Source: a virus. Taken from it: DNA of 64,000 nucleotides. Location: positions 32,511-96,510 of IMG/VR virus record IMGVR_UViG_3300045988_034541. One strand, written 5' to 3'. The position numbers were made by a program, and so were the translations under genes. Position 1 is the stretch's first letter; each line of letters starts with the position of its first letter. A model generated the notes under the pieces. The model saw nothing but the letters and a program-made list of their open reading frames with translations, ran no database searches and was not told the DNA's origin. Below, piece by piece: positions 1-53,986 of the stretch.

Positions 1-9
1 ATTTAGCTG

Positions 10-501
10 GTGGAGGTACAAATACTCCAACCAAGTGTGCCACTAGAGATAGAGTTCTTCGGACTTGAAACTAACGATAATTACGCTAATAATCAGTTAG
101 TTAAGGAAGAGGATATACAGTTGTCAACATTCCAGTATGACTTCAATATACATGTTTCAATAACTAACTCTGGGCTTACGTCTAAATCCTATGACTTTGT
201 AGCAGATGTTTACATAGATGGAGTTCCAGATGGGTTTATAACAATTCCTAGGTCTGGAACTCTAGACTATCAAGGGGTAACTTTCTTTGACAGAAACTTC
301 CACTTTAATTTACCAACTGATTTAACTAATGTCTCTAAATTATTGTTCACTGGATATTTCAGTACATACAGGGTGACTGTAGATGCAGATAGTGTAACAA
401 ATAACGCAATATGCCAATCTGGGGTAACTACTGAAATACCAATAAATCAGGCATATATAGGAGGTGACACAGCTAATATTTCTATAAATGTAATTATATA
501 A
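10..501 (+). CDS. receptor-binding/tail-fibre-like protein, paralog 1 (contains NNQLVKEEDI motif)
   Basis: ORF track. The N-terminal motif NQLVKEEDI recurs in two other RBP-like ORFs (5355-6392 and 9394-10014, minus strand). Confidence 0.45.
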   Translation: MEVQILQPSVPLEIEFFGLETNDNYANNQLVKEEDIQLSTFQYDFNIHVSITNSGLTSKSYDFVADVYIDGVPDGFITIPRSGTLDYQGVTFFDRNFHFNLPTDLTNVSKLLFTGYFSTYRVTVDADSVTNNAICQSGVTTEIPINQAYIGGDTANISINVII

Positions 502-743
502 TGAAGTTTGTAACATTCTTAAAGCAAGTATTCACATCCCACTCTGGCATATCATCTAAGAGACTCTGCGGAGTAGTAGGGTGGTTTGTCTGCTTGGGAG
601 TGTTAATATACTGTGCAATAAACGTGATTCAAGCCCCATTAATGATAGACACAGTCCTGTTGTGTTGTATGGGATTGCTTGGCATAGATTCAGTAACAGG
701 AATATGGAAGAGATTCACCAATAACGATAAATCGAATAAATAA
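501..743 (+). CDS. small membrane protein, two predicted TM helices (holin-like?)
   Basis: 80 aa with hydrophobic segments; lies between tail genes. Confidence 0.3.
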   Translation: MKFVTFLKQVFTSHSGISSKRLCGVVGWFVCLGVLIYCAINVIQAPLMIDTVLLCCMGLLGIDSVTGIWKRFTNNDKSNK

Positions 744-3700
744 TGAAAGTAATACCTAAACTACAACAAGGAAACACCATAGAGTCCGATAATACTAAAG
801 TAGTTAGGCCAGAAATTCATGAACCTATTAAAGCTAAACCTAAACAGTATTCCATTGTAGATTTAGGTGGAGAACCTTCTAATGATACCAGGTCAGCTGC
901 TGAAAGAAATAGAGACTATTGGCATCCTATTAAAGGAGCTAAAGCCAGATTCAGGGCTTCTATGTCCAATGAGACTAATCCTTTAGTTGGAATAGAAAGA
1001 ACTATACTTCCTTCAGCAGCTGGTGCTGCATTAGTAACAACTCCAGCCGCTGTTGTAGGAGGAGCTTTAGGTAATATGACTGTGGATAAGCTTACCGGGG
1101 GCTGGGGTAATTGGTTAGAAGATAAGACTGGCATTCCGTCTGAAATTGGAATTTATACTAATCCAGGAGCTTGGTATGGTGGTGCTAAAGGATATAAGAT
1201 TGGAAAGAACAAGTTAATAACTAAATCAATTAAAAGTGACGCTGACCTAGCTTGGAATCCTATTAACAAGAATCATTGGATATTTAATAAGGAAGCAAGG
1301 ACTCCTTCTAATATAGCAATGGCAACAGCTAACAGAATTACTCCATTTCTATCTAAGGTAGAGAAATTACCATTAAAAGTGGCTGCTTATAAAGCTGCCA
1401 AGAGAACTAACGGTAATGCATCAGTAAGTTTGCAAGATATAAAAACAATGCCAGCCGACTACACAGGTTCTTCAATACTAGGTGGAGGAAATTTAGAAGG
1501 TAGGAATCTATTAGCTAAATATATATTTGATGAGAATCCAGTAGTTAAAAGAATGTTCTTTAATAAAGCTACTAGTAATATCAAACCTATTAGCCGTAAT
1601 GAAGCAAGGAGAGGATTTAGTCATGGGGATAGATATGAGCAGCTTTATCCTGGAGTTCATAACAGAAGATACGAAATGAGTGCAGTAGTACCCTCTGGTA
1701 GACCTCTTAAGTTTGAGAATGTTACAAAGTTTACTGATTATGCTGGAAAGAATCCAATCGGCAAGGTTGTTGGTAAGGAGACTGAACCAGTAATGCGTAT
1801 GGGAGATAAAGAGTTTATGACCTTTAGGCAGCCAGGAACCGATTATATAGGTCCTATTGATGACGTTGCTGGACACTTGGTTAAGTTTCAAATGAATAAG
1901 GGTAAGCTTAGACAGACTTCTCAAGATATGTGGAAATTTAATCCTGCTGACTATGCTAAGAGGTGGAATGATTCTCCTAATACTGCTAACCAAGTTAGGC
2001 TTACTAAACAAGCTGCATTAATGGATAAAGTAGGTCGTCCGTTTATACTACAGCAATCTAATCCTATATGGATTGAAGGTAAGTCTGTTAGAAATCCAGA
2101 ATTGGTAACTATGGCACATGGTGGAAGATTTGATTTTAAGAAGTCCCCTCTGTTAAAGAAACAAGAAGAGATTAACGGTAAAAGGGATATGCGCAAGAAG
2201 TTCATCAAATCAAGTCGCCCAACCTATAAGAAGCGAATTAAGAAAGCTCAACAAGGAATGAAGTTCGTAAGTTATAATCCAGTAAGTAATCCTACAATAG
2301 ATTACACTGATATTACTAATCCTATTAATCCATTTAGTGAGTATAATTATAATACAACTTACGATAAACCAGAGGCTTTAGTAGTACCAGTAAGAGATAC
2401 TGATGAAACTGATGTAGTAGCTAATAATCCTACAGTAGAGCCAGTAATTAATAAACCAGTAGCTAGTAAAGTTACATATACTCCTAAATCCTATAAAGGA
2501 TTAGCTGCATTTAATAAGGCTTATGATGAAGTAGAAGCTAGTAATCCAGAAGCTAAGAAGTATAGGCAATTCCTTACTAAAATGGCAGAGCAGGAATCTG
2601 GATTTAACAGTGCAATTCAGAATAGAGCAGGAGCACCTGCCTATGGCTATTTCCAATTCATGCAGGATGATAAGAAGTATAACAACATTAGACAGTATGC
2701 AGATACGGATATAGAGACATTTAGAAACAATCCTAAGTTACAAATAGAAGCTGCAATTAAACTTGCCAAATCATTTGAGAAGGGATTCAGTAAAGAGGAT
2801 TTGGAACTTGCTAATAAGAATGGATATTCTACTTGGGGATTATTAGGTGGGGCTTGGTTAGCAGGTAATGGTGGTGTACGTAAGTTCTTAAGAGGACAAG
2901 GTAATCCTTCTGATAGACATTGGAGTAAAGAAGGTAAAGGTACTGATGTAGCTACTAGGATTAAGGCATTTAATTTTAAGGAAGGTGGTATTATTAAGTA
3001 TCAAGAACCTGCTCAACCTATTAAATATATGGGAGGTTATGATAAGAGAGGTAACATGGTATTGCCAGTTACTAATGAGAATGGTATGAATAATGTAACT
3101 TTACCAGAAGTAACAGTTACTCCTAGAAATATTAATCTAGCAGGAGCTGTAGATAGAGGAAGGAGAGAAGCCGCACCTTATGTTAGTACATTATTAACAG
3201 GTGCAATATTTGGACCATTATCAGTAGCAGGTGGATATGCAGGTAATGAAGCAGTTAATAAGATTACCAATGTAGCTAGTAATGACAAATATAAAGACTG
3301 GGCTGATATGCTTTCTAAGACTACAGGAATGAATCCGGTAGTTGCAGATTTCTTTAACATAGGTAATTTGGCAGGTGGATTTGGAATGCGTAACTTTGGA
3401 CCTAAGTTAAAGCCAGTAAAAGATATGGCTGTTGGTGGTAATAAATGGGCTAGAGCTAGAGTAATTAGTAAGACTATAAACAAAGGAACTCCTTCAGTTG
3501 AACCATTACCTAATAATGTAGGTTGGGGACCTAGACAATCCATACATGTAGTACATGACAAGAACAGTGCTAGACTCCCGAAATTATACTTTCCAGAAAG
3601 GTGGGATGCTATTCATGAAGGCGCTCCTGAAGCTGGTATATGGTATCAAGGTAAATTTGGCAATCCAAGAACAGCAGCTAATCACTCTATACCAGGTAAG

Positions 3701-3757
3701 GCAGAGAAAGCAGCTAAGGCTAGAGAGAGAGATTTGCCAAGAGACCTTACAGAGTAG
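743..3757 (+). CDS. large virion/tail protein with lytic transglycosylase-like domain
   Basis: 1004-aa ORF. The motif AEQES...GYFQFMQ resembles the family-1 lytic transglycosylase E-S/GLMQ signature found in phage internal/tail proteins. Confidence 0.6.
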   Translation: MKVIPKLQQGNTIESDNTKVVRPEIHEPIKAKPKQYSIVDLGGEPSNDTRSAAERNRDYWHPIKGAKARFRASMSNETNPLVGIERTILPSAAGAALVTTPAAVVGGALGNMTVDKLTGGWGNWLEDKTGIPSEIGIYTNPGAWYGGAKGYKIGKNKLITKSIKSDADLAWNPINKNHWIFNKEARTPSNIAMATANRITPFLSKVEKLPLKVAAYKAAKRTNGNASVSLQDIKTMPADYTGSSILGGGNLEGRNLLAKYIFDENPVVKRMFFNKATSNIKPISRNEARRGFSHGDRYEQLYPGVHNRRYEMSAVVPSGRPLKFENVTKFTDYAGKNPIGKVVGKETEPVMRMGDKEFMTFRQPGTDYIGPIDDVAGHLVKFQMNKGKLRQTSQDMWKFNPADYAKRWNDSPNTANQVRLTKQAALMDKVGRPFILQQSNPIWIEGKSVRNPELVTMAHGGRFDFKKSPLLKKQEEINGKRDMRKKFIKSSRPTYKKRIKKAQQGMKFVSYNPVSNPTIDYTDITNPINPFSEYNYNTTYDKPEALVVPVRDTDETDVVANNPTVEPVINKPVASKVTYTPKSYKGLAAFNKAYDEVEASNPEAKKYRQFLTKMAEQESGFNSAIQNRAGAPAYGYFQFMQDDKKYNNIRQYADTDIETFRNNPKLQIEAAIKLAKSFEKGFSKEDLELANKNGYSTWGLLGGAWLAGNGGVRKFLRGQGNPSDRHWSKEGKGTDVATRIKAFNFKEGGIIKYQEPAQPIKYMGGYDKRGNMVLPVTNENGMNNVTLPEVTVTPRNINLAGAVDRGRREAAPYVSTLLTGAIFGPLSVAGGYAGNEAVNKITNVASNDKYKDWADMLSKTTGMNPVVADFFNIGNLAGGFGMRNFGPKLKPVKDMAVGGNKWARARVISKTINKGTPSVEPLPNNVGWGPRQSIHVVHDKNSARLPKLYFPERWDAIHEGAPEAGIWYQGKFGNPRTAANHSIPGKAEKAAKARERDLPRDLTE

Positions 3758-3840
3758 AAGGTGATTTAGAGTTAGAGAGACCAATAGTTACTGTAGGTGA
3801 CGTACCTAACAGAGCAGCATTAGAACGAGCAGCTGATAAG

Positions 3841-4809
3841 ATGAGTGCTGACGGGGTAATCTTTAATAATGTATATGATAATGGATATTCTAATAACCAA
3901 GTAATCTTTAGTCTTAGAGATGATTTGAAGAATGGTAGAGTGTTTAAGAAAGGAGCTAAGCCATTAGAGAAGAGCCAGTTCATTGATACAGGAACTTCTA
4001 TGAATGGTGATTTAGACATTAATAAGAACATACAGAATTTCGTAGAGTATCTACTAAATCCTGAAACGCAACAGAGAATCGCTAGTATAGATGCAGAACT
4101 AGGGACTAAGTATGGCGAAGCAGCTAAGAGATTTGTCGATAGATATAACAATGGAAACTTAACTGTACTTCCCAGAAATAAGAGAGATGTAGGTTTGGAT
4201 AATGATATAATAAAGTTCTCTAGGTCTGTCCCTAGTGAGGAAATACTAACTACTAAAGACTTCGATAGAATTGCCTTTGAGATACTTAGGGACGATTTTG
4301 CTCATGTACCGGGTCATGAAGCTAAGCATGGAATAGAAACTGTGCAAGCAGCATTATTAAAAGATATGACTCCAACTGAGTATCATCAGTACGCTAAGAC
4401 TGGAGGACCTAGGCTACAAGCTCTAATGAAGGACAATATAGTATCAGAAGATGAGTTTGTTAAACGGATAATGAAAGAACATCCAGAGTATAACGAAGTA
4501 AGTGTTAGAAATAAATATAAATATCTAACTATCCCTTCAGAGTTTAACTCCCAACTACATCCCTTAATAGAGTTTGAACAAAGAGCAGGTAAGTCTGGAG
4601 TTCCCAACTTCAAGAGTGTTGATGAGATTGATAGACTTATTAATAATAATCCTTATGTGGGGACTAGTGAGAATAATGGACTTAGAAATCTTAGACTTCT
4701 ATTTAATTATATAATTAAGGATAAGAATGAATTTATGAGAAGATTTAATAAGTATGGATTTGGGGTAGTTCCTGCAACTACTGTTATTAACAATTATGAT
4801 AATGAGTAA
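3841..4809 (+). CDS. hypothetical protein
   Basis: 322-aa ORF with good coding continuity. Confidence 0.45.
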   Translation: MSADGVIFNNVYDNGYSNNQVIFSLRDDLKNGRVFKKGAKPLEKSQFIDTGTSMNGDLDINKNIQNFVEYLLNPETQQRIASIDAELGTKYGEAAKRFVDRYNNGNLTVLPRNKRDVGLDNDIIKFSRSVPSEEILTTKDFDRIAFEILRDDFAHVPGHEAKHGIETVQAALLKDMTPTEYHQYAKTGGPRLQALMKDNIVSEDEFVKRIMKEHPEYNEVSVRNKYKYLTIPSEFNSQLHPLIEFEQRAGKSGVPNFKSVDEIDRLINNNPYVGTSENNGLRNLRLLFNYIIKDKNEFMRRFNKYGFGVVPATTVINNYDNE

Positions 4810-5023
4810 CACATTTGTACCATGGTGGGGTGATAAAGAGGTAGTTACTGAATATGTAGCTCCTGGAATTAGATATATAAGAGATGCCAAGACAGGTGAG
4901 CTTTTGGCATTTATAGAGGGAGAGGAAGATGATGATATGCTAGATGAGCAACCTAGTAACAATACTTAACATATTGCCATTTGTTTAATCAACTGATATT
5001 GAGTAATTTTACATCATAAAACA

Positions 5024-5053
5024 AAGCCAGACTGCTGTACACAATCTGGCTTT
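5024..5053 (+). terminator. putative rho-independent terminator
   Basis: Hairpin aagccaga...tctggctt followed by ttt, downstream of 3841-4809. Confidence 0.4.
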
Positions 5054-5307
5054 GAACTTATCTACGTGGACGTCTTCTGTAATGCTTACAAACGTGTTCC
5101 AGTTTGCGATACCTTACACGAATGTACGAATGTACGAAGACAGTTTTTGCTTGTAAGCCATTTCTGCTCATAATACTCTGAATTAAATTAATAACTAACT
5201 AATCTTTGTAGATAGTAAGCATCTCTTTAGCTAGGGTGTATGACATAATAGTTTACGATGCAAATATAAAGATATTTATTGAATTATCAATAGCAAATTA
5301 ATATATA

Positions 5308-6392
5308 ATGAGTAAAATAGTAACACAAGACAAACTGAATGAATTAACAGGTAAGAATATAGATTATGGGAAGGGGGGGGGTATTGTCCTCACTACCAAA
5401 CCATAGTTAGTCTCTGGGGTAGCGTAGTTGCGTCTAGTAACTACCAGCCAAATCAATTAGTTAAAGAAGAAGATATAGTTGTAGACAAAGACCTATTCCT
5501 TATTAATGCGGAGACAGGTAGTTTATACTTTGCTGGCGGTGGTACCTATGCTCAAATTCCAGCTATAGACGGCCATGAGGATTTTATATACATAGCTGGA
5601 GGAGGTGAAGCAATTGGAGCATTGTCTATGCTTGGAGGATTGTATGTAGTTAATCAGTCTACCAAACAGTGGGAATTAAAATACAAAGATACTGTAAGAG
5701 CTTATGGTTATGCTCACTTGGCTAGGTTCTCTACTGGCTGGGTATTTTATAAGGGAGCAGGAGGAGACGGTAAGAACTATGTTATTATAGTGTATGATGA
5801 CGGTACAGTAAAGGAGCGTAGTGTTGTAGGCCCAGTCAGTAGCATATCAACTGGGCCTTATGATTACTGCTGTGTTGGGGCATCATATCAGGGAGGAGCT
5901 AGAATATATACCTTCTTGGCTACATCTGTACCAGATTCTCTTACTTATTATACTCCAGGAATGTTTACACCAAGTGCAGTAATACAAGGGTTTCATTCTT
6001 CGCCAAGAAGTGTAGTATATAGCACTACTAGTAATTATACATACGTTAGTGTTAACCCAACTGGAACTCAATGGACTGCTGCAACCACTAGACCACAACT
6101 AACAGGTTTGACTAAAGGATTGTATGTAAATGAAGCTGGGACTAATACATTTATGCTTATAGGAAATAATATGAAGAGTGTGTCTACAGATAGGGTTAAT
6201 AATTGGACTACATCTACACTAGGTAAATATACTCTTACTGATTTAATATATGTAGATTCAAATTGGTATGCAATTGGTTCGAATGGAACTAAAAGACTCC
6301 TATTGCAGAATACAGCTTCTACATTTGACCAAAGTAATAAAATACTTGACTTGCCTGACTATTCTAGACAAGTAATTAAAATTAATACATAA
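5308..6392 (+). CDS. receptor-binding/tail-fibre-like protein, paralog 2, interrupted by a G9 tract (frameshift)
   Basis: ATG at 5308 encodes MSKIVTQDKLNELTGKNIDYGKGGG, then hits the G9 run (5373-5381) and terminates. The adjacent frame is open from 5355 to 6392 (track ORF 5622-6392 begins at TTG) and contains NQLVKEEDIVV. G10 or G7 would fuse the two frames. Confidence 0.45.
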
Positions 6393-6407
6393 CAGGTTGA
6401 TATAATA

Positions 6408-6450
6408 AAGCCCGAGCCTAGTAATTAAACTAAGTTCGGGCTTTGTTGTT
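6408..6450. terminator. putative bidirectional terminator between convergent genes
   Basis: Stem aagcccga/tcgggctt followed by a T-rich run. Confidence 0.4.
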
Positions 6451-6574
6451 TATAATAAGATTCCGTCTCGGTAAGTGAGAATACGTCAGAGCACACTGTC
6501 GTAGACCACCAAGACGAAGATGTAAAAACTATCTTAGGCTTTGTGCCTAGCATCTACTGGCTGGTATCAATTTA

Positions 6575-7429
6575 TTATATAGCTGTAGTGTCTATAGAGA
6601 ATGTCACGTACCACCAATATAAATCATCTGCATTATCTATCCCAACTTCCAGTAGCTGTGACCAAGTTACTCCTTTGCATTTCCGTAAGTCCTTAAGTAC
6701 ATTCAGCACATCTTCCATGGGATTAATGATACATCCTTCAGCTCCATTTGTTCCATTGCTTATTGTCATATAAACTTGTAATTTAGATTCACCTCTAGGA
6801 ATAACAGCAAATGTTTCATAATGGTCTTTTATATTCAAAATAATATCTTCTATATGTTCTAGAACATTGGCTTGTAAGGGTTCGCCAGTCAGGTTACACA
6901 TTCTTAAGCCTTTGGGGGTTCTTTCATAATATAAATGCTTTAAGGACCCAAGTGTATCATACCAAGTTCCAGAGTTAAACAGTTTAACTACTTGTTTACG
7001 TTCCTCCTCATTATAAGGACTCCACCTATTCCCAAATCCTCTACTGGTTCTATCATTGTATGTTTCTGTTCCTGATTGTACTATATAGTCAATAATAGTG
7101 TCCAAATTAGATTCTACTATTTCGTTAGCGTAGTCTAAGGGATACTTTCCGTCAACTACTTTAGTAGTATCAGCCTCAAGAATGAGATATTCTTCATGCG
7201 AGAACAATAGCTCTCTGGTTTCGGAAGTAGAGAATATGCAGGCATTTGTGTCAAATAGAAAGCTGTCAGCCTGATGTTTTACTCCTGTTAGACAGTCAAT
7301 ACAGAATTGTTTTATCTTATCTCTTTGTGCCTTTAATGATGATGCTATATCATTACAATTGAACTGTAAATTTATAGATTGCATATCAAAGTAAAGGATT
7401 AGCCATTTATTATACTCCTCATTTGTCAT
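6575..7429 (-). CDS. hypothetical protein
   Basis: 284-aa ORF. Confidence 0.5.
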   Translation of the reverse strand: MTNEEYNKWLILYFDMQSINLQFNCNDIASSLKAQRDKIKQFCIDCLTGVKHQADSFLFDTNACIFSTSETRELLFSHEEYLILEADTTKVVDGKYPLDYANEIVESNLDTIIDYIVQSGTETYNDRTSRGFGNRWSPYNEEERKQVVKLFNSGTWYDTLGSLKHLYYERTPKGLRMCNLTGEPLQANVLEHIEDIILNIKDHYETFAVIPRGESKLQVYMTISNGTNGAEGCIINPMEDVLNVLKDLRKCKGVTWSQLLEVGIDNADDLYWWYVTFSIDTTAI

Positions 7430-7432
7430 AGT

Positions 7433-7717
7433 TCATTGATTGAAACTTCCATAGCTAGCTACTAAGCTCATTGGTATGTGTATTGTATCTTTTACTCTAC
7501 GAGTACCGTCCTCATTACAATGATTCTCAATACCTCTTCCCAATATTATTGATTTATCATCCATATACGCCAAGTAGCCCACTGTAGTTATCAAATTCTC
7601 ATCCGGACATTCTCCTAGTATATGTCCTCCACGCCATACGTATCTATCGTCCCAATGAACCCACATAGGTTCTCCTACTTCATATCCTAGTTTCTGTACA
7701 TTTAATTTATTCTCCAT
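7433..7717 (-). CDS. hypothetical protein
   Basis: 94-aa ORF, closely packed with its neighbours. Confidence 0.4.
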   Translation of the reverse strand: MENKLNVQKLGYEVGEPMWVHWDDRYVWRGGHILGECPDENLITTVGYLAYMDDKSIILGRGIENHCNEDGTRRVKDTIHIPMSLVASYGSFNQ

Positions 7718-7718
7718 A

Positions 7719-8399
7719 TTAACTACCTACAAGTATTTTAACATTACCAGTCTCTATATCGAGAGTAGCTTTCTCAAGCCATAAATCTTCTATACGATGT
7801 CCCCATATTCCATACTTACCTGGATTCTCCTTCTCTTCTTCGTAAATCCTTCTATATGCAAGGGTTATTTCATTTATTAAATCATTCAAATTGCGGCATT
7901 TAGCAGTGAATGTATACGGATTCTTTAATGGATAACTAATAGTTATATTTACTGTATGGTCTTTAAAGTAGTCAGCAGCGTTGCTAAATAGACTTACTGC
8001 ACAGTTAATAGAGTATTTATGAATCTTTATATTTACTCCTTTAGGAAGCAACTCTTGTTCTTTCTCTATTGTGAATTTAGATGGAAGTCTGTTTATCACT
8101 TCCTGTACATCGAAGTCCTTGTCCCTATACACACTTATCCCAGATTCTTTATGCTCCACATATATACAATACACTAGTCTATACTGACTATCTCCCACGC
8201 AAACATTCAGCTTATGCATACTAATATCATAATCTGGATTTAATTCCCTAATTTCATTTAGCCTATCGTTATCATTAAAGATTGCACAGATGATTTGGTC
8301 CGCTTGTTCCTCCGTTATCAAATTGTTCTCTAGTAATTTGCCTACTAGGACAGGTACTATCTCCTCCACTTCATCAACATTAATTAATCGCTTTCCCAT
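7719..8399 (-). CDS. hypothetical protein
   Basis: 226-aa ORF. Confidence 0.5.
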   Translation of the reverse strand: MGKRLINVDEVEEIVPVLVGKLLENNLITEEQADQIICAIFNDNDRLNEIRELNPDYDISMHKLNVCVGDSQYRLVYCIYVEHKESGISVYRDKDFDVQEVINRLPSKFTIEKEQELLPKGVNIKIHKYSINCAVSLFSNAADYFKDHTVNITISYPLKNPYTFTAKCRNLNDLINEITLAYRRIYEEEKENPGKYGIWGHRIEDLWLEKATLDIETGNVKILVGS

Positions 8400-8593
8400 T
8401 CTTCTTCTAATGTATTATATAATTTAATAAAATCTTCTCCTTTATATTCACATACACATTCATTATCCTTATTAAAGATAGTAAGCATGTGCATATCCTT
8501 AGATTGTCCATTGTCTACATAAGAATACATCCCGTGTACCAATACGTATTCGGGATGTTTCTCATTCCAGTTATTTACAAGTTCCTTCATCAC
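8384..8593 (-). CDS. hypothetical small protein
   Basis: 69-aa ORF in an operon-like array. Confidence 0.35.
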   Translation of the reverse strand: MMKELVNNWNEKHPEYVLVHGMYSYVDNGQSKDMHMLTIFNKDNECVCEYKGEDFIKLYNTLEEEWESD

Positions 8594-8831
8594 TAAGTGT
8601 TATTCCATTACTAGCATAAGATATAAATGTACCTGTGTCATATGGTCTCCAGCCACTATTATCTCTACGTATAGTAGTTGTCTGTCCTACGTTAAATTGT
8701 GGAATCTCTACTATGTTATCAAGAACTCTAAATAAGTCCTCTATTGATAAGTTTGGAAGTATCTGATGTAAATTCTCTAATGTCTTTCTAACGTCAATCA
8801 TAATAGTATATTTTAGCAAATTGTACATCAC
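8571..8831 (-). CDS. hypothetical small protein
   Basis: 86-aa ORF. Confidence 0.35.
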   Translation of the reverse strand: MMYNLLKYTIMIDVRKTLENLHQILPNLSIEDLFRVLDNIVEIPQFNVGQTTTIRRDNSGWRPYDTGTFISYASNGITLSDEGTCK

Positions 8832-9033
8832 CTATACTAATATTAGGCAGTAATACTTTATATAGTTCTGTAGATTCAAATGTATCTTTATATTCCCTAG
8901 GAACTAACAGAGTATCAACATGATGTCCTCTAGATATTCTAGCTAGATAGGAAATTTTACTGTCATCAAAGTCTGTAAGTTCCAACATAATGGCATTATG
9001 ATGCCTAGGACAATTTCCACTAAGTATTATCAT
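8794..9033 (-). CDS. hypothetical small protein
   Basis: 79-aa ORF. Confidence 0.35.
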   Translation of the reverse strand: MIILSGNCPRHHNAIMLELTDFDDSKISYLARISRGHHVDTLLVPREYKDTFESTELYKVLLPNISIGDVQFAKIYYYD

Positions 9034-9199
9034 AATTACTTCTCCTGTAGTAAGATTCTCATCTCTTCCTTCCAGTTCTTATACCACTGTTCATTAATAA
9101 GGTCTTCTGATTCAATTAATTCAATCAAATCCTTAGTGCCATTATGAATTTGGCTACATAAATACTGTGCTAATTGGTTCTTTAATTCATCCATAATTA

Positions 9200-9397
9200 T
9201 TAGTCTTTAGTTTTAACATAAAGTTGGCAATGGCAAGTCCCTTCTTCCATTTCCCTAAACTCTTTACACATACATACTGTATCTTCATCTCTTACTAAAG
9301 AGCATGGACAATACTTCTTACCATACTTCTCTTTATTCCTTTTAAGTCCTGCTAGGACTGTTTCCTTTACTTCTTTATTATCAGTTACTTTAATCAT
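9200..9397 (-). CDS. small Cys-rich protein with CPC...CMC...CHC motif (ferredoxin-thioredoxin-reductase catalytic-subunit-like)
   Basis: 65 aa. The spacing CPCx9CMCx10CHC resembles the FTR catalytic chain CPC/CPC/CHC signature. Confidence 0.4.
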   Translation of the reverse strand: MIKVTDNKEVKETVLAGLKRNKEKYGKKYCPCSLVRDEDTVCMCKEFREMEEGTCHCQLYVKTKD

Positions 9398-10039
9398 TGC
9401 GCTGACGCTGTATACAGTTCTATGTTTAGGTCTATTTCCCCACCAGTAAATCTAAATACTCTACCAGAATTATTCATTTTGACCCACCTTCCAGATGAAG
9501 GGAATGTTACTCCTTCTGCCCAATTCTCAGATTGAGAATCTACTGCTAATGTAATTTGAGACACTTGCCTAAGCATCACGTATCCCTCAAAACGTATCCA
9601 AACAGGTGTATTATATGGGTCTTGGTTAGGAAGTGCTAATTTCTCTAAGTAATATTTAAGAGGATTTGCTAAAGTCTTAGTGTACGTTCGTTCTCCTTGC
9701 TCTAATCTTGGAGTAATTGTAAAGTACATAGTATTGTCAGAATACGTAAACGGCTCTCCATTCACTGAACTCTCATTAACAAATGAGAAACGTACTCTAA
9801 ATTGCTGTATATTATTAATTGGCATATCCTGCCAACCATAATGAAGGATTACATTTGGAGCAGTTATAGCTGCCTCTATACCTTCTAACTCCACTAACTG
9901 ATTATCAGTATAACTAAATCCACTTTTAATCTGACATCCTAATTCAAGTGCTCTAGCTTTAGTACAGCACTTATTATCAATTACCGAGAGAGTCCCCCCC
10001 CATAGTCTTAGCTTCTAATTCTGTTGCTATTTTACTCAT
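9394..10039 (-). CDS. receptor-binding-like protein, paralog 3, interrupted at a C8 (coding G8) tract
   Basis: Minus-strand ATG at 10039 encodes MSKIATELEAKTMGG, then the poly-G run (plus-strand C8, 9994-10001) shifts it out of frame. The adjacent frame is open from 10014 through the GTG-start track ORF 9394-9894 and contains DNQLVELEGIE (the NQLV.E..I motif). Confidence 0.4.
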
Positions 10040-10301
10040 GGTTCTTGTATCGTTCTGTAATATTAATTAAATCCTTGTTGTCATGCAGTAACTCTAAGAA
10101 AGCCTTGTCTACTGCTATATCAAATGCAGTATTAGTAATGATTGGTTCTTTATGCACTCTCTCAATCTCTTCTCTAATCATTTGTTCAGATAATTGAGTG
10201 TATAATCGTCTGGTATAATCATTATACCAAGGCTCTTTAAATGTTACTATAATTTCTTCTCCTGTCATAAATATATTGTCTTTAGTAATCCAGGTAGGCA
10301 A
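10032..10301 (-). CDS. hypothetical protein
   Basis: 89-aa ORF. Confidence 0.4.
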   Translation of the reverse strand: MPTWITKDNIFMTGEEIIVTFKEPWYNDYTRRLYTQLSEQMIREEIERVHKEPIITNTAFDIAVDKAFLELLHDNKDLINITERYKNHE

Positions 10302-25299: not shown

Positions 25300-25371
25300 G
25301 CCCCATTACTTCAGTGGTAGAAGAGCAAATTCTAAACTTGTATGGCGTTGGTTCGAGTCCAACATGGGGCA
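25300..25371 (+). tRNA. suppressor tRNA, anticodon CTA (reads UAG)
   Basis: Canonical cloverleaf: acceptor gccccat/atggggc, D-stem cttc/gaag, anticodon arm gcaaa-ttCTAaa-cttgt, T-arm gttgg-ttcgagt-ccaac. Confidence 0.75.
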
Positions 25372-25373
25372 CT

Positions 25374-37578: not shown

Positions 37579-38646
37579 ATGATAAATATAGTTTTAGGTA
37601 GTTTCTTCGGCGATTGCGGTAAGGGACAGACAGTTCACAACTTATGTAACAAGTACATAGGTAAGCGAGAGTCTGTGTTAGTAGTCAGGTTTAGTGGTGG
37701 ACATCAAGTAGGACATACTGTAAAGCATGGAGACATGATGCACACCTTTAGTAACTTTGGCAGCGGAACCTTACTTGGAGTGCCGACGTACTGGTCCGAA
37801 TACTGTACTGTAGACCCAATTACCTCTATGTTGGAGGGTGCAGACTTAGCTAAAATGGGAGTTCATCCCATTGTTCAGTATCACCCTCACTGCCAAGTTG
37901 TAATTCCCTTCGATGTCTATTCCCAAGTTAATAACGAAGAGAACTTACGACATGGTACTGTAGGTACAGGGTTTAAAGCTTGTTTGGACCGAGTTAAGGC
38001 AGGATACAGCTTAACAGTTGTAGATTGTATGAATCCTTACATACTGCGTGAGAAACTAAATGCCATAGTGGATAACTATTACAACATGTCTAGTAAATAT
38101 CCTTCGATAGACCTAGACAACTGGTGTAGGTTAGCACATGCTTATTTCTTACATACAGGTACGGTTAATGAAGATTGCTTGTTGAATTATGATAACCTAG
38201 TGTTTGAAGGTTCACAGGGAATATTGCTTGACCAAAGATTCGGCATAATGCCTTATTGTACTCCGTCTAATACAACTTCACAAAACGCTTACGAGCTGTT
38301 GCGGAAAGTAGGTATACGTAAAGAAATCCAAACTTGTTATGTAACTCGTCCTTATATAACAAGGCATGGTAACGGCCCGTTTCCTTCTGGAATGTCTGTT
38401 AGGGATGTCGATGACCCTAATAATAAGTTCAACGATTTCCAGAAGACGCTTAGGGCTATTGATTTCGACAAAGACCTATTCGCACACAGTGTACGCATTA
38501 ACCGTTCATTTAAGGTTCCTTATAGGAATGAACGAACGGAGAAATTGTACGTATCACATTGGGATGAAGCATCTGACGCAGAGCGAGAAATGCTAGCAAA
38601 TTTATGGATGTCGATACAGCCCATGATATTCGATAAGTTAGTTTAG
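37579..38646 (+). CDS. adenylosuccinate synthetase family protein, short form (PurZ-like candidate)
   Basis: Motifs GDCGKGQ (compare PurA GDEGKGK), GGHQVGHTV (GGHNAGHT), GTVGTGF (IGTTGRGIGP), FEGSQGILLD...TPSNTT (FEGAQGTLLD...TSSNTT) and GNGPFP. At 355 aa it is shorter than the cellular PurA (about 430 aa). Confidence 0.7.
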   Translation: MINIVLGSFFGDCGKGQTVHNLCNKYIGKRESVLVVRFSGGHQVGHTVKHGDMMHTFSNFGSGTLLGVPTYWSEYCTVDPITSMLEGADLAKMGVHPIVQYHPHCQVVIPFDVYSQVNNEENLRHGTVGTGFKACLDRVKAGYSLTVVDCMNPYILREKLNAIVDNYYNMSSKYPSIDLDNWCRLAHAYFLHTGTVNEDCLLNYDNLVFEGSQGILLDQRFGIMPYCTPSNTTSQNAYELLRKVGIRKEIQTCYVTRPYITRHGNGPFPSGMSVRDVDDPNNKFNDFQKTLRAIDFDKDLFAHSVRINRSFKVPYRNERTEKLYVSHWDEASDAEREMLANLWMSIQPMIFDKLV

Positions 38647-53343: not shown

Positions 53344-53712
53344 TTGTTAACAACAATGACATTCGATGAACAAGACTCTCTTATAGAGTCATTGAACGCG
53401 GCTTATGATAAAGCCGGAACTATTACAGATGAAGACATCAAAGAACTGTTTGCCAAGAAGAATGCAATCGCTGATGAAGACGAGCAAACTTCTTATGAGT
53501 TCGATGAATTCTTTGCAGAAGTAGTGAGTAAATGGGCGCAAGACGGGCTGACTGATGAGAAAGCTCAATTACTGCTCAATCTTATTGATAGCGCTGACGG
53601 TAGTGTGGACGATTCTGAAGACGCAATGTTGGAAGAATTATCTATGGCTGAACTGACTGGCGTGGACATATCTGAAATATTAAAAGATAAGTTCCCAGAC
53701 TACTTTGAATAG
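53344..53712 (+). CDS. highly acidic protein (DNA-mimic/anti-restriction candidate)
   Basis: 122 aa, strongly D/E-rich throughout. Confidence 0.45.
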   Translation: MLTTMTFDEQDSLIESLNAAYDKAGTITDEDIKELFAKKNAIADEDEQTSYEFDEFFAEVVSKWAQDGLTDEKAQLLLNLIDSADGSVDDSEDAMLEELSMAELTGVDISEILKDKFPDYFE

Positions 53713-53986
53713 TTCTTATGTATGGTGATAGGTTATGGAATAGACATTCCAGCCAAAATATCACTAGGGGGGGGGGTGTAGGCTCCTCTTCGTTGCTTTT
53801 AGCAACACACCTAATGCCAGGCATTGGCATTATTGTTATCAGTTTATGGTAACGGACTTTAGGCTACGTTATATTTAATGTAGTGCTAATCGCGCAGAAC
53901 GATATTCGTACTGCCGTTTAGGGTCAAATTCAGATTAGTTATTAGATTATTCTTTACTTCTAATGAAGTAAGGTCTATTCTAGTGA

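Follow-up and report, generated by a model that had tools for sequence, protein, structure and literature searches.

A poly-G tract as a probable slipped-strand contingency locus in an accessory gene of an uncultivated human-gut phage

In the stretch of phage DNA analysed here (64,000 nt; the window), gene 1 occupies positions 5308..6392 on the plus strand and carries, close to its 5' end, a run of nine G residues (poly-G tract 1, 5373..5381, plus strand). Translation starts at ATG 5308-5310 and follows a leader frame that reads MSKIVTQDKLNELTGKNIDYGKGGGIVLTTKP (also given, from ATG 5308, as MSKIVTQDKLNELTGKNIDYGKGGG), ending at the stop codon TAG 5404-5406, the eighth codon past the tract; the leader ORF of this OFF state (5308..5406, plus strand) encodes a 32-aa peptide. 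The body frame, which is the frame of position 5310, runs without a stop from 5355 to TAA 6390-6392, and its earliest ATG, GTG or TTG is TTG 5622, with ATG 5628 two codons on. The gain of one G or the loss of two turns leader and body into a single ORF of 361 aa (G10, the ON form) or 360 aa, and the fusion peptide across the tract in the ON protein is ...IDYGKGGGYCPHYQ.... The tract lies within codons 22-25 of the gene, as a homopolymeric G run of at least 7 nt inside coding sequence, and encodes a glycine loop, GKGGG in ON alleles, which we propose as a hypermutable switch. The initial annotation had arrived at the same picture from the letters alone: we re-found its ATG at 5308, its G9 run at 5373-5381 with a stop eight codons on, and its open neighbouring frame of 5355-6392 lacking an ATG ahead of TTG 5622, and the computed ORFs agree with its statement that G10 or G7 would join leader to body.

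A further ATG, at 5366..5368 on the plus strand, lies in the third frame and comes into the body frame when the tract is G8 or G11. The product would be a leaderless protein of ~338 aa starting MGRGG(G)YCP..., and a few gene calls among the relatives (P0115, P0116, L099) do begin in this way. We considered a conserved leaderless isoform from this codon and rejected it, as TAC replaces TAT in many relatives and the ATG is then gone. Such genes are routinely mis-annotated as truncated ORFs of 256, 166 or 32 aa. Gene 1 is a self-contained unit, in which an upstream gap of ~340 nt is followed by the gene and then by a strong hairpin between convergent genes (6402..6449; -27 kcal/mol, z = -6.98), which is likely to be a bidirectional terminator.

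Gene 2, a paralogue of gene 1, lies on the minus strand at 9394..10039 and is likewise OFF in the window. From its start codon (ATG 10039) it reads MSKIATELEAKTMGG... and then enters poly-G tract 2 (9994..10001, minus strand; G8 on the coding strand, C8 on the plus strand), with the leader frame stopping 20 codons in. The gene-2 body is open down to 9394, and G7 or G10 would fuse it to the leader, giving an ON form of 214-215 aa. That the second gene has the same architecture had been claimed at the outset, and it is borne out by the arrangement of ATG, G8 and open body; tract 2 is, moreover, hypervariable too (see below). Directly downstream of gene 2, in its operon, a 65-aa ORF (9200-9397, minus strand) matches PF02943 at 1.5e-13, the catalytic beta chain of ferredoxin-thioredoxin reductase, an odd neighbour for a putative virion protein and untypical of a tail module.

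A third paralogue, gene A, is represented by its 3' part only (1..501, plus strand), being cut by the start of the window. It has the same N-terminal module, and its glycine loop is encoded by GGT GGA GGT, without a homopolymer; we therefore used it as an internal control. Gene A is intact in 15/17 relatives. At ~45-60, the window is one copy short of a TAGAG TAGAG direct repeat when compared with 10 relatives; since the missing copy breaks the frame of gene A, all three paralogues appear to be off in the genome to which the window belongs. Poly-G tract 3 (G10; 53767..53776, plus strand) lies in a 310-nt gap that extends from the ORF 53344-53712 to ATG 54023. A 44-aa ORF from ATG 53719 spans this tract, and we rejected it as a conserved coding sequence because it is open in some alleles only; the tract may belong to a promoter, a UTR element or a small ORF. 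A search of Rfam around tract 3 gave nothing credible.

These three runs stand out from the composition of the window. At 37.6% GC and over 64 kb, homopolymers longer than 6 nt number only three and all are of G or C: G9 at 5373, G8 at 9994 and G10 at 53767. Matches to G8 number 6, against 0.14 in shuffled sequences, and 0/100 shuffles reach 6. A runs of at least 7 nt are expected 18.4 +/- 4.5 times and T runs of this length 8.4 +/- 2.9 times, and the window has none of either. Among the glycine codons GGG is the rarest (7% of Gly codons), so three consecutive GGG codons at the same place in two paralogues are no accident of codon usage.

The ON form of the gene-1 protein consists of a ~60-aa N-terminal module followed by a predicted 7-bladed beta-propeller, with seven four-stranded blades around a central axis. 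Residues 1-60 have low confidence in the monomer model; the propeller strands start at residue 63, and position 5622 falls at residue 106. The earlier description of the body as fibre-like did not survive this modelling, and we rejected the gene-1 product as a fibre. In gene 2, the ON form joins the N-terminal module to a beta-sandwich body. The module (M-x-K-I-[AV]-T ... G-G ... C ... NQLV-E) is common to genes 1, 2 and A and to two distant relatives, and it is found with diverse bodies in the database: in P0145, P0148 and P0159 other bodies follow the gene-1 module, in P0282 to P0292 other bodies follow the gene-2 module, and P0291 joins the gene-2 module to the gene-1 propeller. Many database fragments and chimeras related to genes A, 1 and 2 (P0167, P0174, P0177, P0178, P0189) break just past NQLV-E--I, which indicates that assemblies, and possibly genomes, branch at the junction of shared module and variable body.

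Neither Pfam nor PHROGs assigned gene 1, gene 2 or the majority of their neighbours to a family, and family and fold searches gave no match that would place the gene-1 protein in the virion or link it to receptor binding. When 1.84 billion representatives were searched exhaustively with HMMER, the family proved narrow: only two full-length distant relatives appeared (55% and 43% identity), and two longer proteins of unrelated appearance matched weakly (E 5e-7 and 2.5e-5). A profile built on the N-terminal module found only short fragments from the same lineage and no named tail-fibre relatives. The neighbouring protein encoded at 743-3757 has 1004 aa and an SLT domain, and its equivalent in other strains (L099-L109) has ~1220-1258 aa and a glucosaminidase domain instead. 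Peptidoglycan hydrolases of such size are typically found among tail-associated proteins. The design of a module and an exchangeable head plausibly fits an accessory protein for host recognition or adhesion, possibly exposed on the virion surface, and a receptor-binding role is plausible from the modular architecture and the neighbourhood.

The fused gene-1 protein has 339 database relatives, found on human-gut contigs that reach 175-186 kb. The best 120 clusters of these relatives are 84-96% identical to it, nearly all of them full length (355-366 aa) and starting at the leader; 81 of these 120 clusters read ...YGKGGGYCPHYQ... (GKGGG, corresponding to G10), and the others have 1, 2 or 4 glycines (G4, G7, G13) or substitutions within the tract. 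To score the tract at the DNA level, we fetched 77 loci with their flanks, which gave 56 scorable alleles including that of the window. None of the fetched loci is identical to the window, identity over 12 kb being 97.8% at most. Across the 56 alleles the longest G run of tract 1 varies from 4 to 11; 24 alleles are ON and 32 OFF, 21 of the latter in the window's frame and 11 in the other frame. The variation extends to closely related genomes, as 15 pairs of loci that are at least 99% identical over the downstream 1 kb differ in tract 1 (for example G8 versus G10 at 99.7%). Changes beside the tract that restore the frame (A3G9, A6G9, G9T, G8TG) are all found in ON alleles, and among interrupted tracts G6AG3 is ON in at least 4 loci, G7AG and G6TGG being in the OFF frame. 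The exact 32-aa OFF peptide of the window occurs in 110 blocks of the collection and in at least 23 contigs of different samples and assemblers, some of them 180-185 kb long and one with a coverage of 14.6x.

Both parts of the gene are maintained irrespective of its state. The gene-1 body, ~310 codons long, is open in 29/31 OFF alleles and in 21/23 ON alleles, and the gene-2 body is intact in 17/18 OFF alleles. Leader codons 10-15 differ by 51 synonymous and 0 nonsynonymous changes among 23 distinct leader alleles, a pattern by which the leader is under purifying selection. Leader and body are thus both maintained, and their joint expression must be frequent enough to expose them to selection. 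The tract itself holds its position even in relatives with as little as ~77-80% protein identity.

The other two tracts behave similarly. Tract 2 ranges from G6 to G10 among 27 alleles, 9 of which are ON and 18 OFF, and in the gene-2 protein clusters full-length and truncated calls each represent thousands of member sequences. All four ON/OFF combinations of gene 1 and gene 2 are present in relatives; in the joint table, rows L065 and L069, for which the anchor matched the paralogue, are to be disregarded. For tract 3, a scan with exact patterns for its flanks gave no match, and relatives were reached through the protein route instead: 22 alleles have runs of G6, 7, 8, 9, 10 and 12 between flanks that are 95-99% identical, and one contig terminates at the tract. 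The ON fractions of gene 1 (43%) and gene 2 (33%) are near the 1/3 expected without selection on the state; they fit rapid switching under fluctuating selection, and equally weak selection.

On these grounds we consider it probable that the G9 run acts as a contingency locus, switched by slipped-strand mispairing, in a non-essential phage gene. The homopolymer occupies the codons of a glycine loop (residues 23-25), where, according to this model, slippage of the polymerase during replication of the phage DNA would add or remove G residues. Tracts of G4, G7, G10 or G13 put the 22-codon leader in frame with the body and yield the full protein; G9, the state of the window, or G12 stop translation after 32 codons; and G8 or G11 are off too, giving at best the leaderless product from ATG 5366. 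As the loop tolerates 1-4 glycines, in-frame changes would be harmless and out-of-frame changes would switch the gene off reversibly. The paralogue at 10039-9394 (minus strand) carries the same switch and would flip independently, and a phage population should then hold particles that differ in the accessory proteins they make. Phase variation is supported at the level of natural populations, by comparison of their sequences; heterogeneity and reversibility within a single population we infer from differences between samples, with near-identical pairs of unlike tract length and contigs that end at the tract as indirect evidence. The benefit may be one of bet-hedging, and the locus would then offer a testable case of gut phages hedging against variable host surfaces, for which natural ON and OFF alleles are already plentiful in public metagenomes.

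The most obvious objection is that the true genome has G10 and a single ORF, with the variation among contigs being homopolymer noise. Illumina sequencing and assemblers both struggle with poly-G, runs of G8-10 are error-prone, and the G9 of the window is one base off the commonest ON length. Several contigs stop at the tract (L016, L020, L033, L084), one of them with adapter sequence there, and many metagenome contigs are of low coverage (1.5-6x); individual length calls may therefore partly be wrong. However, the lengths span G4-G13 for tract 1 and G6-G12 for tract 3, well beyond an error of +/-1, and neither substitutions within the tract nor compensating changes in its flanks can arise as homopolymer miscalls. 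OFF alleles also occur in contigs at 14.6x and 18.9x coverage (L103, L023), the same OFF peptide recurs in the 23 or more contigs from independent samples and assemblers mentioned above, and no fetched locus exceeds 97.8% identity to the window over 12 kb; we accordingly regard an error as improbable. Programmed recoding would make G9 itself functional, through -1 ribosomal frameshifting on G GGG GGG or through slippage of RNA polymerase. The heptamer formally matches X XXY YYZ, either a -1 shift or an mRNA longer by one G would bring leader and body into one frame, and the intact bodies of OFF alleles would be equally well accounted for. Against this, the out-of-frame state is not conserved, 24/56 alleles being in frame and 11 requiring the opposite shift; gene 2 of the window needs +1 rather than -1; and the region past the tract (5366-5470) has no structure, its minimum free energy of -25.8 kcal/mol being close to the shuffle mean of -25.1 (z = -0.20). 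Known ribosomal slippery sites and sites of transcriptional slippage are mostly A/U-rich, and G GGG GGG is not a type that we know to be efficient. We find programmed recoding quite unlikely; low-level leaky slippage of the ribosome or RNA polymerase on G9 is possible, though it is not needed.

The tract could also mark a decaying pseudogene, a gene in the course of being lost whose frameshift is plain inactivation. More than half of the natural alleles are out of frame, which shows the gene to be dispensable, some interrupted tracts sit in the OFF frame, and the third paralogue of the window is likewise frameshifted through the loss of one TAGAG repeat. Yet decay would hardly leave the body open in OFF alleles (29/31) much as in ON alleles (21/23), the leader under purifying selection, and the tract at one site in relatives as distant as ~77-80% protein identity, and we judge such decay to be very unlikely. 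Finally, the protein might truly start at TTG 5622 or ATG 5628 (256 aa), downstream of a leader that is an unrelated small ORF, and gene callers do report a 256-aa product (P0121). Such a start is extremely unlikely, given that beyond the tract the frame stays open and is conserved, that homologues align from residue 1, and that the shared N-terminal module and the first propeller strands would be cut off. The initial annotation had offered slipped-strand phase variation and programmed frameshifting together as preferable to a random error. The first of these gains from the comparison, with variation across 56 alleles, intact OFF bodies and a leader under selection; the second does not.

Beyond variation in tract length, related contigs differ in the arrangement of the locus. 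The first 21 nt of gene 1 (5308..5328) and of gene 2 (10019..10039) form an inverted repeat whose arms are 90% complementary, and no other inverted repeat within 5200-10150 has an exact seed of 11 nt or more. At least three arrangements occur: at least 19 loci are colinear with the window, at least 22 have the cassette 5300-6443 inverted relative to both flanks, and at least 8 (including L003, L031, L035 and L054) have the whole segment 5305-10040 inverted, with junctions at the ATG. In this last arrangement, the sequence found ahead of gene 2 in the window lies ahead of gene 1 instead. At the nucleotide level, four distinct upstream contexts share the exact junction ATGAGTA[A/G]AATAG, and the hairpin region forms the right-hand edge of the gene-1 cassette in rearranged relatives, where matches to the cassette stop at 6443. 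Arrangement types are mixed among the nearest neighbours of the gene-1 body, although ungapped identity makes this a crude test. Rearranged relatives include L003, L031, L035, L054, L009 and L099-L109; in types II/III, the 322-aa gene at 3841-4809 is unmatched to the window past its first ~100 nt, and matches end at ~3613-3937.

Searches of ~30 ORFs between 1 and 20.9 kb against Pfam and PHROGs found no serine or tyrosine recombinase family. The rearrangements may reflect programmed inversion or occasional homologous exchange, and rare homologous recombination may be sufficient. One may speculate, with considerable doubt, that the first 13-21 nt of the leader (ATGAGTAAAATAG...) serve as a portable recombination junction, by which poly-G-gated cassettes would repeatedly be inverted or moved between expression sites. 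If true, cassette position and reading frame would, in combination with the three independent poly-G switches, provide an abundant gut phage with a two-layer combinatorial system that varies surface proteins within one population.

The phage itself belongs to a lineage for which the phage collection yielded no close relative. A near-identity DNA search (megablast, positions 4800-6900) against 50,697 phage records gave no match, and a scan of 185,579 species-representative genomes found no relative of gene 1, and thus neither a prophage nor a clue to the host. Among the long ORFs of the window, 55/59 have no Shine-Dalgarno-like motif of any kind, a scarcity that would fit a host of the Bacteroidota type. 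Between 17840 and 52847 the window carries 28 tRNA genes, one of which (25300-25372) encodes a suppressor-like tRNA whose anticodon is CTA. Despite this tRNA, we rejected a recoding of TAG that would allow reading past the leader stop, since TAA stops follow in the leader frame; taking TAG as a sense codon also lengthens no ORFs in the window, which speaks against TAG recoding here, so that any such recoding would concern genes outside the window. At 37579-38646 a 355-aa protein is a short homologue of adenylosuccinate synthetase (PF00709, 2e-33) and matches a PHROG annotated as a PurZ-type enzyme (5e-45), and by this sequence similarity the DNA of the phage may contain 2-aminoadenine (Z).

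Contingency loci in phages are only lately being recognised, and to our knowledge Campylobacter phages are so far the only phages with demonstrated poly-G phase switches in genes for host recognition. In Fletchervirus phages of Campylobacter, genes for receptor-binding proteins are reported to contain tracts of G7-G11 (Sorensen 2021, Cell Rep 35:109214, via 10.1101/2025.10.21.683753; also cited in PMC12823448), and these tracts yield subpopulations that infect when the phase-variable receptor of the host is off (10.1101/2025.10.21.683753). The two systems share G tracts in phage coding sequences, a tract length that shifts the frame, and several tracts per genome that create subpopulations. 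Tract polymorphism in and out of frame is common to both as well, being seen here between natural genomes, with OFF alleles that are otherwise intact. Unlike in Fletchervirus, the tract described here lies ~20 codons past the start, in a glycine loop of the N-terminal module common to paralogues, and the locus belongs to an uncultivated human-gut lineage of ~175-186 kb and 37.6% GC whose genes lack Shine-Dalgarno motifs. Given that genes 1 and 2 have no PHROG or Pfam family, we regard the two as sharing the same kind of mechanism and not the same gene family. In the library that we searched, we met with no description of human-gut phages that switch by poly-G, an absence that is no proof, and the same strategy is apparently present in a widespread, uncultivated lineage of human-gut phages of ~180 kb.

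Contingency loci have also been described in T2/T4 and other coliphages (Gomez, Barrick & Waters, bioRxiv 10.1101/2025.10.21.683753), and poly-G tracts have been noted in BPP-1 and PB1-like phages (10.1101/2025.10.21.683753). The T2/T4 loci resemble the present ones in being short homopolymers in phage genes, with reversible frameshifts and bet-hedging, and differ in that they are of at least 6 nt, genome-wide and under-represented in tail-fibre genes (10.1101/2025.10.21.683753), whereas our window is purged of other homopolymers and has three long G runs alone. Similar in design are the poly-G/C loci of bacteria (Campylobacter, Neisseria, Haemophilus), in which a homopolymer near the 5' end of a gene related to the surface or to interaction mediates slipped-strand ON/OFF switching at several independent loci; the present locus differs in being virus-borne.

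The rearrangements have their nearest parallel in the invertible segments of Mu (G/Gin), P1 (C/Cin) and p15B (Min), where an inverted repeat likewise bounds a segment that is found in both orientations in nature. Those segments carry alternative host-recognition genes, with C-terminal parts being swapped onto a constant N-terminus. Here, in contrast, the repeat consists of the first 21 nt of two coding sequences, and no recombinase was found among the ~30 neighbouring ORFs. Because the repeat coincides with the starts of the coding sequences, it is whole genes that change expression site, and these leader-bounded rearrangements offer a new lead beyond the known poly-G switches.
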